DNA of 6,812 bases from Candidatus Krumholzibacteriia bacterium (GCA_036478295.1 JAZGDW010000267.1:1-6812); one strand, 5' to 3'; positions 1 to 6,000 are shown, numbered from the stretch's first letter. Made by a program: the numbers.

Positions 1-3000
1 CCTGGGTAGCTCTTTAGACTTCCCCAGTCGATCCAGTGACGCAGGAGCCTGGTCCCGCGTTTCTTGGTGGGGGCGTCTGGGTCATTTATTATGAAGATCA
101 GCCGTGCGAGGTTGTCCAGCGTGCATCCGAAGTGGAAATAGATACCCTTGATGTGAGCAAAGTACTCTATCGAGTGCATTTCCTGAGCGGTGCGCTGCAG
201 AACCGCGGCGGCTGCGCCGATCGACGTAACCACCTCATAGTGCGACTTTGCAAGCTCCCTGTAGCTGTCTCTGACGGGCTCCGGGATCGTTTGGTTCGAG
301 CTGAGGTTGGAAGCGTTGTTGCCAACGTGGATTGCATATCGGAATTTTACCCAGTTCTCGACGTTGACTTTCAAAACGTCGCGGATATGCGTTTCGGCAA
401 CATCTAGGGTAACTTTCCGATAGTTGAATCCTTTCGGTAGTTTGATCATAGCGTCCTCGTCCTCCCGCACCTCGGCAAGGGGGATAATAGCATTCGGACG
501 CGAACCGGGGGAAGAACGGTGTCTCAATTGGCCCAAAATTGGGGCTATTTACGCCCATGCTTCCCCGGCAGGCTCCCCTTTAACTGGAAGTCGGAGTGAG
601 TGTTATAGTTACGGAAAGTCGACTAGATCGGGAGGAACCGCACCCGCCCCGCCAGCTCCGACACCGAGAGCCTACGAATCCTGGGGTTTGTCCTCGCTCT
701 GTGCGCGGGAACTCTTGGCGATGAGTTTTTTGAGCTCGACCTGGTCGGGGGCGAGCAGTTCCTTGACGCGTTCCGTATTGACGCCGGCCACAATAATCTG
801 ACCGATCTCGGTTTTTACGTCGTCGAGAATACCCAGGTCCTTCATTCCCGCGGTTTGTTTTTGATTGTCATCAGTTGGACTCACGTAATGGATCGACACA
901 CTCTTGTAACGATGGATGAGAAAGAGGTGGATCAAGGTCATCAATCGTTTCTTGCGGAACCCCTCGTCGAATGTGTTCTGGTCGCGGATCGAGAGGATGT
1001 TGCGGTCGCGACGATCCTGGATCGTGGCGAAGATAACATCGGCGGTTCTGGTGCCGGCGCCATCGAGTACGTTCAACTCCAGGAGCTCGGCACCGGCCGT
1101 GTGCGGGCGCAGCTGGACCTCGAGGGTGCCGGGGATACCGTTGTGTTTGGTCCACAACTCGAGCCACGACTCCAGGAGTTTCGGCGGCACTTCGGTCTGG
1201 ACCAGGTGCTGGGCGTGCGTCGAACCTTTGCCCATCGCCTTGGTGGTCGCGGTGCGGCCCGTTACCGCCATGAGGGCGCCGTCGAGACGCGGCCCACCGA
1301 CGTAGCTCTGCGGCGTGCGGTATGGTGAGTCGAGCAGACGAAACTTGCGCTGCAACCTCGCCAGCGCCAGCATCCCATCCTGTTTCAACGCGGTGGCAAA
1401 CTCCTCGGCGGCGAGACCGTCGATCTGGTGACCACCGTAGGTAATGAAGTTGAAGACATACCCGCTCCTCCCCAGCTTCTCCGGGAAACCCCGCATGTCT
1501 TCGTCGCTCATACCGGTCGTGTCCCAGTTGAACGATGGCGACAGATTGTAGGCCAGCATCTTGTCGGGATATATGTCGTGGATTGCGTTTGCGAACTTGC
1601 GCGCGTCGGCCAGGTTCGCGGTCTTGGTCTCCATCCACAGGATGTCGGCAAAGGGAGCCACGGCCAGCGACCGGGCCACCGCATAATCGATACCGCCTTG
1701 TATCTGGTAGTAGCCTTCCGGTGTCTTTGATAATTCGCAATCCCACAGGACCTTGATATCCATCGCTTTTGCCTGCTCCCGCGCTTCCGGAAAGGACACC
1801 CGCCGCGAGAAATCGAGCCATTCTTCGACCGTCATGTCGAACGTCGCACCTTCGTCGATATGAAACTCCATCGCATCGGCCGCGGCCTGACCGAAGGTCT
1901 TGAGACCCGCCTGCATCTGCCAGGCGTCGATGAAGACGGTGGTCACCTCATCCAATGTCGCTTCGACGTCGGCCCCCTCGTCCATGGCCGCGAGACTTCC
2001 ATCCACACGCGACAGGATACCGGCTTGTTCCAACCAGGAGAGCGCCGACCGGTAGGCGGCCCTGGAGACCTTGTACAGCAGGTGCCCGTTTATCTCTTCA
2101 ACACCCGCCTCGTAGAAGCGTTTGAGAACTGCGAGATAGGCGGGCTTGAAGGCGGGTAGCGCGGTGTTGGTGGCGCCGAGTATAAAGGGATGGTCCCGCT
2201 CGTCACCGCGGCCGTCGAGGTAGGTCGCCGCTTCGGCGTCGGTGCGCGCCACGATGATGCCGGGGACCTTCATGATGTCCAGTTGCAGACGCGCCGCGTT
2301 CAGGCGTTTTATCTGCTCGTCGACGGGCACCAGCACCTTGCCGGCCTGGTGGCCGCATTTCTTGGCGCCCGGTTTCTGGTCCTCGATGTGGTAACCGGGA
2401 ACCCCCACTTCGACAAAGCGGCGGATGAGGTTCCTCACGTGCGCCCCGCCGCCGTGACCGGTGTCGGCGTCGGCTATGATAAACGGGCGGTAATCGATCC
2501 TTCTTGCAGCCGCCCGTTCCTTGTCCGTCATCCGCGAGCGTGCAAACTCCTGGTTCTTATCCGCGGCAAGGAGCGCGCATACCAGGGTCGCCGCCTCGTC
2601 CGGCACCTGGCTCAATGGATAGCTGGCCAGATCGGGTCCGGGGTCTTCGGTGACGGACCCCTTGGCTGAAGTTGCCCAGCCGCCGAGATAGATGCCTTCG
2701 ATGCCCATCCGTTTCAACGTCACCGCCTGCCCCGGTGAGTAGGGACCGAACGTGGTTATCTGACTTCGTTTGGAAAACAGCTCCTTCAGCCGTTCGTAGA
2801 ATCCCTCGGCCGCCTGGCGCGCGATGGAGTAGTCCTGCTGGATGGTGCCGCGCTGTGCCACCACCTGGCGGGCCGAGTAGAGACGGGTGATGTCACCGAA
2901 ACGCTCACTCGAAAACCACTTCTCGGTGTCTGCGGTTTCGGTCTCGAGCCAACCCCGTTCGGCGGGCGCTGCCGGTTGTGGCGTGGACGCTTCGGGTGCT

Positions 3001-6000
3001 GCCGGTTCGGCCGTGTCCGCTTCGGCCGTGTCCGCAAAATCGAGGTTCTCGGTAAGCCGGGTGCCGTCCCGTTTGAACGTCTCCATGTAGCGTTCGATCC
3101 GTTCCCTGGCGGTCACCAGGTTATGGTTATTCAGATTGAGGTTCAGGAGATCGATATACCATGGGGCTTTCACGTCATCGACGACATAGGTCTCGACGAT
3201 CTCCCGCGCAATGGGCAGGGTGGTCGTTTTGGAGTCATCGTGGACGTCCTTGTCCTTTGCCTCGAGGAGTTTCCGGTACTCTTCCTCCAGTAGTTTCTTG
3301 AAGACCTTGGCGGTGAATACGTCTCCCACCTTCAATCCCGTCTCACGATCGTCTTCGGTCAGCACCGCGCCCTTGTGGATCCACTCCCACAGGATGCTGA
3401 GACGGATCTCTCCGGTCGCCATGTCTTCCATGAGGTACAGGATGTTGTCGTCGTCGAAGAAGTCGGCCGGTTTGAGCGCCGCCGCCTGGAAACCCTGACT
3501 GAAGGCGTTGCCGTACTGGAGCGCGACACTGAGAAGATTGCGCGCCCCGCGGATGGTCCTCGGCGCGGGTTCCAGCAGGGTCAGACCGTCGGCGTCGGCC
3601 TGGGTGTAGGTCAGTGGCGGGAAGTCGCTCCCGAGTTGGTTGTCTTCCCCGACCCGCTCCCACACCGGTCGTACGATGTGCACCATTTTCCAGTGGGCGA
3701 CCCACTTGCCGCTAGCACCCCGCCGCTGCTCGCGCGCGCCACCGGCCACGGCTTTCTTCATACTGTTGGTGACGCCCTCTTTCGACCCCACGGGAATGTT
3801 GGGCTCCATCCCTCCCTGCCACAAAGCGAAGTTGCCTTTGAGGTCCGGTGTGTTCACCGCGCGTCGCACGCGGTCTTCGTAGTGTTTCATGTAGGCGTAG
3901 GTCATGGTGATGGCTTCGATATTGGGATTGATGAAACCTTTATCCCACGCCATCGCATCGGCCACGCTGTTTATGTAGTCCCAGCGGCCGGTGTTGAAGC
4001 CGACGAAGTGCCGGCCCAGGGCCGCGCGGATTTCCATGAGCTGAAACGTAGCCTCGAGCTGTTCCACCAGCACGTAGACCTTGATGGTGCCGTTGGGGAG
4101 GGCGACGTAGTCTTCGAGCACGGTCAGCATGTCGTTCCACAGCGCCGCCTCTTCCGCCGTCTGGATCTTGGGCAGGTAGAGGACGATGGACGAGCCAGCT
4201 TTGAGGAACTGCTGGTAGTTGTTTACGACGTACAGAACCGTGTCGACAATGGAGGCCGAAAACCCCTGGCCGTCGCGATCGCGGATGTGACGGTCGTCGA
4301 GGTGCAACCCGCGCGCGCGGAAAATCTTCGTGGTAAAGTCCAGCTGCCCGCGCAAGTCGTCGATGATCTCACGCGCCAGAAATCCCTTCGACCACTCGTT
4401 CATCTCCACGGCCACCTGCTCGGCCACCTTCATGAACGGCGGGTCTTTTTGAATGGCAAGTTTCAGGTTGCGCTGGTTGTCGAGCGACATGGTGGTTATC
4501 TGGCCCATGGCGTCTTCGCCGTCGAACATCCAGCCATCGGCGCCGGAGAGGAGTGCGTAGGCGACGTTGCGGATGCTTTTCTCGGTGGGGGAATTCGGTT
4601 TGGCGCCGGGCCCGGTGCCCTGAATCCACTGCCGCTTGAGGTCGGCCGGTATCTCCGAACCGATGAACTTGCCGTCGCGTGCGTCTTGCACCTTGATCCG
4701 GGTGCGCGGAATGTAGCTGTTCGGGTCGAGGAAGCTGATTCTCTGGTGGTTTCTGGCGCGCTCCGCCCGGCGGCGGATGCGACCGGCCATGACCTGTTTT
4801 TGATCCTCGTTGAACGGTGCCAGAAACGCGAGGGCGCCCATGACTTCCGGCGTGTAGACGTCCCCGTAGGCGCTCTCGAGACCGGTGCGGATCTCCAGTG
4901 CGTCGCTACCGGCGGCGGTGATGGACTGCTTGTTGTTCTGGTGGGTGGTACTCATGACCGATCTTTCTATTCGGAGAGGGCATACCGGTACACGGCCATG
5001 TCCTCATCCTCGTGTAGTTTCACATTGTAAAAGAAGTTCAAAACGGCGACCACGACCAGATTCCGGAGAACCATGGGTCCAATATAGCACAAGTTTTCAT
5101 TCTCGGCGTTCATGACGTGGACGTCCGTGCGGCACCGGTTCCCGATCCCTCAGTCTGCCCCACCCGAAGAGACAAAAGAAACACCCCGAAGATAACCACC
5201 GCAGACAAGACGAACACCCGAACATTCAGCAGCGTAAATAGCATCCCACCGAGCACGAGCCCCAGGATGCTCGCCACCGCACCGCAGCTGGCCGCCACTC
5301 CCTGCACGGCGCCCTGGTACTTGTCCCCCGCCGTCTTCGAGAGGATGGACACCACCGACGGCCACATAAGCCCGTTCCCCAGCGCCAGCAGCACGACCCC
5401 CGTGTAGAGCCGCACCATGTTTGGCGAGCAAAAGAAGGGAAAGCTCGCGGCAAGAATGAGGCTCCCCACGACGGCCAGCGTCGACTCCGGCCACCTCCTG
5501 GACGCACGGCTTAGGACCGGTCCCTGTACGAGGGCCATCATGAGACTCAAGACCACAAAGAAAATCCCCATCTCCTGAACGCTCCAGCCTAGGTCCCTGG
5601 ACGCATGCACCGGAAAGGCGATGTAGAAGAAGTTGAATCCCAGCATGACGAGAAAATAAATCCCCAGCAAAAGCGACACGTCCGGTAGCCGCAGCACCCC
5701 CCGGAACGAGAGCTTCTCGGCGGCCTTCATTTCAAAGCACGGCTTGTGGTCCTGTCCGAGTACCTTGTGCACGCCGACCTGTTCGGGGTCCTCGCTCAGG
5801 ACGCACGGCCTGGACTCCGGCAGCTTGAAGAGAATCATGAGACTGGCGACGACAGAGATCGCAAACGCGGCGAGCACCGGCAGCAGTTCCCCCAACGAGG
5901 TGCCACCCAACACGCCGGCGAGTGCCGGCCCGAGGATGAACCCGAGGTTTGCCGATACCGCCATCTTGCCGAAGTTCGCAACGCGGTTCTCCTGGCTCGA

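Follow-up and report, generated by a model that had tools for sequence, protein, structure and literature searches.

A bacterial fusion protein combining a long-form malate synthase with an ICL2-type isocitrate lyase

Introduction

The glyoxylate shunt is the route that enables growth on acetate, and enzymes that carry isocitrate lyase (ICL) together with malate synthase (MS) on a single chain are known from textbooks as oddities of nematodes and Euglena. A gene in the genome bin of a Candidatus Krumholzibacteriia bacterium raises the question of whether a bacterial protein unites the two shunt enzymes, from which parts it is built and what their union means. In a survey of this genome, the gene was read as a bifunctional shunt enzyme that hands glyoxylate from lyase to synthase, and as an unstudied bacterial counterpart, in reversed domain order, of the nematode and Euglena proteins. 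Here we have analyzed the window, which is the whole stretch of 6,812 nucleotides that constitutes contig C187 of the bin (3.52 Mb in 316 contigs), together with relatives of the encoded protein.

Results

A single reading frame for two enzymes

The gene (P0001) occupies positions 672..4955 of the minus strand. Its uninterrupted reading frame starts with ATG and comprises 1427 codons and a stop, with zero internal stops in ORF list and translation, which agrees with the 1427-residue protein of the survey. In the whole protein, Pfam places MS_TIM-barrel at residues 211-441 (E 1.9e-47), MS_C at 505-570, ICL at 673-936 and in a second stretch (E 3e-128) and PEP_mutase at 802-907, which reproduces the MS and ICL domains reported previously. 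With further matches in NCBIfam and the PDB, the gene is confirmed as a true in-frame fusion of an MS and an ICL2-type ICL. A promoter scan of positions 400-5300 detected three promoter-like sites, none of them upstream of the fused gene, and the number of terminator-like sites in the same region is at chance level.

An error of assembly or sequencing at the junction might have merged two neighboring genes, as separate MS and ICL2 genes in matching order are present in two other genomes (G020 and G034) and no sequencing run with the exact window sequence was found (best share of words 0.16). We nevertheless consider such an artefact extremely improbable, in light of an uninterrupted frame also in 20 other species-level genomes and in about 110 protein clusters among the matches listed, and of a linker that is in frame with those of other fused proteins in their alignment. 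Moreover, the linker is spanned by a contig of 304 nt from run X1, in which 2 and 7 nt are deleted, with a sum of 9 nt that is a multiple of three. The contigs from four sequencing runs are short and originate from relatives, with none spanning the whole 1-kb stretch, and no RNA run with the fused-gene sequence was found among the matches listed (best DNA share 0.16).

The survey had also cautioned that the 6.8-kb contig might be mis-binned or a transfer. By mis-binning or recent transfer, the gene would be foreign to this organism. The contig is short and devoid of a marker gene, the contamination of the bin is estimated at 4.96%, and no match was detected in a genome of the same genus (G001, 92% complete). 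Furthermore, the gene tree of MS modules departs from phyla, and the closest module on it (80%) belongs to a record labelled Dadabacteria. In contrast, the contig has a GC content of 0.602 and the genome one of 0.598, the tetranucleotide distance of the contig falls on the 49th percentile among 43 contigs of 5-9 kb, and the fused gene is found in two of 12 other genomes of the same family that were searched (G004 and G007, 71-75% identity), both of which adjoin the window on the MS tree (support 87 and 93, not starred). Since the composition of the contig fits the bin and two family-mates contain the fusion, the concern about mis-binning is unsupported and we regard a foreign origin as unlikely.

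A long malate synthase with conserved catalytic residues

The MS module encompasses residues 1-640 (3036..4955, minus strand), as supported by Pfam, TIGR01344, alignment to the structures 3cuz and 3cux, AF2 and Foldseek, and it belongs to a separate long form whose length is about 625 residues. In a PDB sequence search, malate synthase A (MSA, 3cux) aligns to residues 28-548 (E 1.3e-45). An AF2 model of the module (pLDDT 81.6, pTM 0.88), with low-confidence loops at 145-153, 490-495 and 504-510, retrieves the MSA chains 3cuz, 3cv2 and 3cux as top Foldseek matches (E 1e-28 to 6e-30, TMt 0.86-0.87; best match 3cuz with E 5.9e-30 and TMt 0.86), with chains of MSG ranking behind (E ~1e-14). The module is consequently predicted to adopt the malate synthase fold consisting of a TIM barrel and a C-terminal plug. 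Residues R213, E298, D326 and D511 align with R166, E250, D278 and D447 of E. coli MSA (alignment to 3cuz/3cux) and are invariant in all 83 of the 83 MS modules of relatives. We take R166 to be the catalytic arginine and E250 and D278 to be Mg ligands of the E. coli enzyme. D447 acts as catalytic base, as described in the available excerpt of PMC3112382.

While the fold and these four catalytic or metal-binding residues are common to the module and to MSA proteins (E. coli AceB, 3cuz; B. anthracis, 3cux), the former is about 100 residues longer, shares 26% identity in a structural alignment and displays gaps, family-specific insertions and a C-terminal extension. It passes the Pfam model MS_TIM-barrel (161.8 against a cut-off of 26.4) but scores below the equivalog model TIGR01344 malate_syn_A (242.1 bits against 594.5), and is thus a member of the malate synthase family rather than an equivalog-level MSA. 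Unlike MSA, the long MS forms a clade of its own, with at least 566 loci in the set of species-level genomes, and is employed together with ICL2 or, in genomes that lack ICL, beside glycolate-oxidase-like genes.

A complete ICL2 on a variable linker

The two enzymes are connected by a linker with a high content of Ala, Pro, Glu and Thr (residues ~641-669; 2949..3035, minus strand), which was located in an alignment of 21 fused proteins. Between its anchors it counts 38 residues compared to 19-26 in the 20 other proteins, and is thus about 13 residues longer. Throughout the alignment the linkers fall into at least two classes. They are short, variable and of low complexity, which counts against a fixed tunnel.

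The following catalytic domain of ICL2 (residues ~670-1241; 1233..2948, minus strand; alignment to 6edw and TIGR01346) contains the KKCGH loop, placed by its motif at residues 865-869 (2349-2363, minus strand), and a helical insert (residues ~930-1078; continuous alignment to 6edw), with the domain limits transferred from the excerpted PMC6788997 via alignment offsets of 9obo. It precedes an inter-domain linker and a C-terminal domain (residues ~1242-1427; 675..1232, minus strand; 8g8k match and 6edw alignment). In a PDB search, isocitrate lyase 2 (6edw and 9obo) aligns to residues 663-1415 (E = 0) and the isolated C-terminal piece 8g8k to 1255-1415 (E 2.1e-51), and the ICL part exceeds the isocitrate lyase equivalog TIGR01346 (438.9 bits, cut-off 275.9). 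The alignment to 6edw is continuous over residues 278-427 of the helical insert as numbered in the excerpt of PMC6788997, around which the Pfam ICL match is split, and it reaches chain residue 785, among the last residues, within the GNAT-like C-terminal domain, where one block of 103 columns is ~55% identical. By its sequence, the ICL part accordingly classifies as Group III (ICL2 type), mycobacterial-type and complete. With the solved ICL2 structures it has in common a KKCGH-bearing barrel, a helical insert and a C-terminal domain attached through an inter-domain linker, but it is preceded by a malate synthase of 640 residues and, unlike mycobacterial ICL2, resides in an uncultured environmental bacterium. 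Catalytic and C-terminal domain occur together in 41 non-mycobacterial loci.

In M. tuberculosis, the C-terminal domain of ICL2 is described as acetyl-CoA-binding, GNAT-like and allosteric and the enzyme, the only one for which this is known, as activated by acetyl-CoA or propionyl-CoA (excerpts of PMC6788997 and PMC13102942), with additional activity as methylisocitrate lyase (excerpt of PMC6788997). This second activity, together with the score of the MS module below TIGR01344, its insertions, its C-terminal extension and the low-confidence loops of its model, would leave room for one half to function outside the shunt, with the MS being regulatory or specific for another acyl-CoA or 2-oxo-acid, or with the ICL2 serving mainly as methylisocitrate lyase. 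We find this improbable given the invariance of the four MS residues, a match to the MSA fold that extends across the whole Foldseek target, the presence of the long MS in glycolate-utilization-like neighborhoods of ICL-free genomes, and an ICL part that retains KKCGH and lies above its equivalog cut-off.

Fused, split and unlinked relatives

With residues 1-660 as query, a homologue search that admits only proteins of 784-2498 residues returned 192 matches (E<=1e-5). Of the 120 that were listed, 110 comprise 1360-1430 residues. The roughly 190 proteins mentioned in the survey were thus recovered, whereas the near-universal fusion that it stated is an artefact produced by the length filter, since such a search misses stand-alone MS proteins of about 625 residues. 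Proteins of 1950-4828 residues with this MS module had at first been taken as eukaryotic, an assignment that was dropped since two are named Candidatus Omnitrophota in a cluster look-up.

Among the best 80 of at least 566 loci with a long MS, 20 encode a fusion to ICL2, 22 contain the MS gene directly before a separate ICL2 gene and 32 lack a nearby ICL. Where the two genes are separate, the stop codon of the MS directly follows the motif that precedes the linker in fused proteins, and 7-36 nt separate it from the ICL2 start in most pairs with both anchors located. The position of this stop at the start of the linker implies that the fusion has joined two working genes from one unit, and the comparison indicates, at the level of sequence, an origin of the fused gene from a two-gene MS-ICL2 unit. 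In an unrooted tree of MS modules that includes 21 fused proteins, fused and split states are interspersed with at least eight changes, and a single clade of the 21 is rejected (p-AU 0.014), which suggests that the fused state was reached several times independently. No family recurs across lineages as conserved neighbor of the unit (70 flanking ORFs, 39 loci).

A long MS in the absence of any ICL was found in five of five isolates tested, and in ICL-free genomes it is located beside genes for a glycolate-oxidase-like FAD/Fe-S oxidase, a lactate/glycolate permease, LUD and malic enzyme. Such surroundings are consistent with a glyoxylate-consuming malate synthase; the 'G' isoform of E. coli is itself named for its role in glycolate metabolism (excerpt of PMC3112382). 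The unfused units and the ICL-free isolates together indicate that fusion is dispensable and that the long MS is not an exclusive partner of ICL2.

Discussion

The described features of the protein reflect on its likely role. The in-frame fusion with intact catalytic residues in both halves, in a gene that is the sole ICL and the sole MS found in this genome, makes a bifunctional glyoxylate-shunt enzyme the natural reading. The survey's view in this respect is borne out at the level of the gene, and we hold it with good confidence for the protein, with activities that we infer for both halves. The same genome encodes citrate synthase, an acetyl-CoA synthetase (AcsA, 977 bits against a cut-off of 725) and three matches each to the aconitase family and to Iso_dh.

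In the proposed mechanism, the C-terminal ICL2 part would cleave isocitrate to succinate and glyoxylate, which the N-terminal MS would condense with acetyl-CoA to malate. By analogy to M. tuberculosis ICL2, the lyase parts may form a tetrameric core with one MS each on a flexible linker, and the C-terminal domain may turn the lyase on when acetyl-CoA, the co-substrate of the MS, is available. Tethering would keep source and sink of a reactive aldehyde at a ratio of 1:1 and near each other, although some flux may bypass the MS if the lyase, as described in the excerpt of PMC6788997 for its mycobacterial homologue, also cleaves methylisocitrate. In its strongest form, this proposal amounts to a self-gated machine, an ICL2 tetramer with four tethered MS modules where acetyl-CoA licenses glyoxylate to be made and used in one particle, which we advance tentatively, as a possibility that we judge to be rather doubtful, and the kinetic channelling of glyoxylate from lyase to synthase, as claimed in the survey, would be pure conjecture.

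Alternatively, the fusion may merely fix co-expression at 1:1, with both enzymes operating independently via free glyoxylate and thus no kinetic meaning of their linkage. We view this as quite possible, if short of probable, as fused and split states alternate on the MS tree where monophyly of the fused proteins is rejected, linkers are short, variable and of at least two classes, and flanking genes are unconserved. The two-gene arrangement in 22 of 80 loci, with its narrow spacing, is also in line with this explanation, according to which a fusion would be readily gained and lost, given that the two genes lie side by side in one orientation. Conversely, its recurrence in several phyla and in at least 190 protein clusters suggests some advantage, and glyoxylate is a reactive aldehyde, with the ICL/MS fusion filed under unstable or reactive intermediates in PMC4921024. 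Our data fit channelling and co-expression equally.

A bacterial fusion of the two enzymes has already been noted in print, as the survey had cautioned might be the case, and the present one represents no new type of system. According to the available excerpt of PMC1630690 from 2006, Anaeromyxobacter dehalogenans has a third fusion of independent origin, and an Anaeromyxobacter ICL is grouped there with the insertion-bearing mycobacterial and eukaryote type. An ICL/MS fusion of Anaeromyxobacter sp. Fw109-5 is listed in PMC4921024 from 2016. Like the protein described here, these are bacterial fusions of the two genes, a comparison made by description only. Neither homologue search, the second of which was seeded with the fused protein P0128 (61% identical), had an entry named Anaeromyxobacter among its 120 listed matches, and literature searches on the Anaeromyxobacter fusion returned the 2006 paper alone. 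The claim of an unstudied bacterial counterpart thus holds for its biochemistry, as no bench activity, expression or structure of any bacterial MS-ICL2 member was found in literature searches, but not for its discovery.

Similarly, the reversed order attributed to the protein holds with respect to nematodes but not to Euglena. The excerpt of PMC1630690 describes the order ICL-MS for nematodes and MS-ICL for Euglena, and an 'MS-ICL' fusion is named for Acanthamoeba in excerpts of PMC13632647 and PMC13632651. The order found here is thus that of protists, with the whole shunt on a single polypeptide as in Euglena gracilis and Acanthamoeba castellanii, although the latter proteins are eukaryotic and mitochondrial and likened by domain order from their descriptions. 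The nematode enzyme (C. elegans ICL-1/GEI-7) equally unites both enzymes on a single chain but in opposite order, with an ICL close to those of alphaproteobacteria and an MS close to that of Bacillus (excerpt of PMC1630690). Such parts, the short classical forms of ICL and MSA, make it a separate fusion event, in contrast to the MS-then-ICL2 order and the long MS and Group III ICL of our protein.

Collectively, our study describes a bacterial fusion made of different parts, a long MS and an allosteric-type ICL2, which is common in uncultured phyla. Its name in databases is solely 'isocitrate lyase/PEP mutase family protein', so that malate synthase may be counted as absent when metabolism is reconstructed automatically. 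The ICL2 design with a domain of the acetyl-CoA-sensing type appears to be widespread, whereas a 2026 description confines it to mycobacteria. The coexistence of fused, split and unlinked states offers a clean test of the benefit of fusion. If the protein were indeed a self-gated machine, the family would constitute a natural experiment on substrate channelling created by fusion, and the allosteric mechanism of ICL2 would be a widespread bacterial design rather than a mycobacterial speciality.

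A single frame encoding malate synthase and isocitrate lyase

The gene at 672..4955 on the minus strand of the window consists of one open reading frame of 1427 codons, which begins with ATG and contains no internal stops. In its product, Pfam places the malate synthase (MS) families MS_TIM-barrel at residues 211-441 and MS_C at 505-570, followed by isocitrate lyase (ICL) in two stretches from residue 673. The protein clears the NCBIfam isocitrate lyase equivalog (438.9 bits, cut-off 275.9), and the malate_syn_A equivalog matches residues 45-593 at a score far under its cut-off (242 vs 594.5 bits). 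Among solved structures, malate synthase A (MSA) aligns to residues 28-548, Mycobacterium tuberculosis isocitrate lyase 2 to residues 663-1415 (E = 0) and 8g8k, an isolated C-terminal piece of ICL2, to residues 1255-1415. The single frame and its family and structure matches therefore confirm the survey's finding of an MS fused to a lyase of the mycobacterial ICL2 type. The best-supported reading of the gene is that it very probably encodes a bifunctional enzyme of the glyoxylate shunt.

The N-terminal module belongs to a long form of MS, which exceeds MSA by about 100 residues and constitutes a separate family, with 322 matches at E<=1e-30 when 1.84 billion representatives were scanned without a profile, and at least 566 loci in species-level genomes. 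This distinct clade is added by the present analysis. In an AlphaFold2 model of residues 1-645 obtained from a 52-row alignment (pLDDT 81.6, pTM 0.88), the top Foldseek matches are the MSA structures of E. coli and B. anthracis (E 6e-30 to 3e-28, target TM 0.86-0.87), with chains of isoform G ranking after them at about 1e-14. Residues R213, E298, D326 and D511 align on R166, E250, D278 and D447 of E. coli MSA (3cuz). Across the related MS modules, all four and the neighbouring R215 are invariant (83 of 83). D447 is described as the catalytic base of the E. coli enzyme in PMC3112382.

The ICL half, which contains the motif KKCGH at residues 865-869, aligns without break to 6edw from the N-terminal helix through the last residues, thus spanning both the ICL2-specific helical insert (the region as delineated in PMC6788997) and the C-terminal domain. 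In M. tuberculosis ICL2, this domain binds acetyl-CoA and activates the enzyme, according to PMC6788997 and PMC13102942, in whose main text the term malate synthase does not occur. PMC13102942 states that Group III lyases are to date known from mycobacteria only; the present analysis adds that the ICL2-type architecture, with its putative allosteric domain, is present far beyond this group.

Genomic context and origin of the gene

The window is a complete contig (C187) of 6812 bases and is part of a bin of 3.52 Mb in 316 contigs (90.9% complete, 4.96% contamination). Its GC content (0.602 vs 0.598 in the genome) and its tetranucleotide distance resemble the rest of the bin; by the latter it ranks 144th when the 176 contigs of 5 kb or more are compared and lies at the 49th percentile of the 43 that measure 5-9 kb. 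These values argue against a mis-binned contig or a recently transferred gene. So does the occurrence of a fused gene in G004 and G007, two of 12 further genomes of the same family that were searched (71-75% identity); both adjoin the window's protein on the MS tree (support 87 and 93, not starred). A genome of the same genus (G001) gave no match to the fused gene and the most similar MS module (80%) is found in a record labelled Dadabacteria, which would favour such an origin, yet we consider it unlikely that the contig was misplaced or its gene recently acquired. The same two observations make it likely that transfer between phyla has occurred in the history of the family.

The genome also encodes citrate synthase, three aconitase-family genes, three Iso_dh genes and an acetyl-CoA synthetase that exceeds its equivalog cut-off, and the fused gene is the sole ICL and sole MS found in it. 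Most genomes of the same order contain instead a classical aceB-aceA pair, which shares 32-38% identity with the halves of the fused protein. Some relatives combine two systems: the order-mate G020 holds a split long-MS/ICL2 pair and a classical pair (C241, C403), and the fused gene is accompanied by a classical MS in G004 (C15) and G007 (C202).

Upstream of the fused gene and on the same strand, a gene at 5110-6441 (minus strand) encodes a 443-aa MFS transporter, which matches MFS_1, resembles Tet(A)-family efflux models at a score far under their cut-offs (144.9 vs 475 bits) and is not conserved beside the fused gene in relatives. A partial frame at 3-536 (minus strand) runs off the contig end and has no family match except a weak one to DUF7367 (E 0.0073).

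Fused, split and unlinked states

Among the best 80 of at least 566 long-MS genome loci, MS and ICL2 share one frame in 20, a separate ICL2 gene lies directly downstream in 22 and no ICL is found in the locus in 32, with the remaining six ending too early for the state to be read. It was a length-limited search that had made almost all relatives look fused. In these 80 loci, every ICL linked to a long MS is of the ICL2 type, and the C-terminal domain is seen in 41 of 42 linked proteins, the 42nd being cut by a contig end. The description of the MS-ICL2 unit as a series of fused, split and unlinked forms is added by the present analysis.

In the split pairs of the window's order (G020, G034), the MS stops one residue past the conserved motif preceding the fused linker, and ICL2 starts a few bases beyond in another frame. 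An alignment of 21 fused proteins defines linkers of 19-26 residues between anchors in at least two classes, and that of the window's protein measures 38 residues, with an additional piece rich in Ala, Pro, Glu and Thr. A quick maximum-likelihood tree computed from 83 MS modules requires at least eight changes between the fused and not-fused states. Forcing the 21 fused rows into one group lowers the log-likelihood by 85.5 units (p-AU 0.014); this group was set by the trait, but after the free tree had been viewed. As judged from this unrooted tree, fusion or fission occurred more than once.

Divergently upstream of two split units, a regulator of about 510 residues (L017:784-2325 and L018:1477-3009, both minus strand) combines an XRE-type HTH with a Peptidase_M78/IrrE-like domain and is similar to the RamB/PrpR regulators, a family that responds to acyl-CoA. 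An IS110-family transposase fragment (L014:10439-11059, plus strand) lies just downstream of the fused gene with the highest similarity, which is compatible with mobility of the unit. In the order-mate G031, an ICL2-like stretch (C10:385238-387507, 38-47% identical) is interrupted by seven in-frame TGA codons, which may reflect decay of the copy or a problem with the reading frame.

Relation to known fusions and proposed mechanism

The fused MS-ICL2 protein is a real and widespread form within a known kind of enzyme, and its novelty had been overstated. Its domain order is not the reverse of that in protists, since the order is ICL-MS in nematodes and MS-ICL in Euglena (PMC1630690), and likewise MS-ICL in an Acanthamoeba fusion recorded in 2026 (PMC13632647 and PMC13632651). 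Nor is a bacterial counterpart new to print, as PMC4921024 lists the ICL/MS fusion of Anaeromyxobacter sp. Fw109-5 among fusions around reactive intermediates. To the extent of the literature searched, outside subscription journals, the bacterial form is biochemically unstudied: neither biochemical nor structural work on such a fused enzyme was found.

By analogy to ICL2, the protein would form a tetrameric lyase core bearing four flexibly attached synthases, with the lyase being switched on by acetyl-CoA through the C-terminal domain. The flexibility and variability of the linker and the frequent unfused state favour proximity and a fixed stoichiometry over a tunnel.

Long malate synthases without lyase and giant relatives

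Unlinked long MS genes are found in five isolates (loci L048, L052, L054, L060 and L077; genomes G041-G045), comprising two Spirosomataceae genera, a Spirosoma, a Balneolaceae and a Catalimonadaceae. Neither an ICL2 query nor Pfam ICL detected a lyase in any of the five, with control genomes being positive. The neighbours of MS were read at seven unlinked loci, four from these isolates and three others. In L052 and L054, MS is flanked by an FAD oxidase of 957 residues that carries an Fe-S domain and by a lactate/glycolate-type permease, in L068 by such a permease and in L060 by proteins with LUD domains and by a malic enzyme-PTA protein. By sequence, the oxidase resembles glycolate oxidase and these neighbourhoods look like glycolate utilisation, which provides independent context evidence that glyoxylate is consumed by long MS and suggests a GlcB-like role of the unlinked form in glycolate use.

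At the other extreme, giant proteins of 1950-4828 residues (P0130, P0131, P0133, P0134, P0135, P0136, P0144 and P0150) combine long MS (42-55% identity) with ICL in either order, two of them being assigned by their source to Candidatus Omnitrophota. Some also carry HEAT repeats (P0130), a class-V aminotransferase (P0133), PEPCK (P0131), and TIM, class-II aldolase and GAPDH (P0150). Such proteins would unite the glyoxylate shunt and gluconeogenesis within a single polypeptide.
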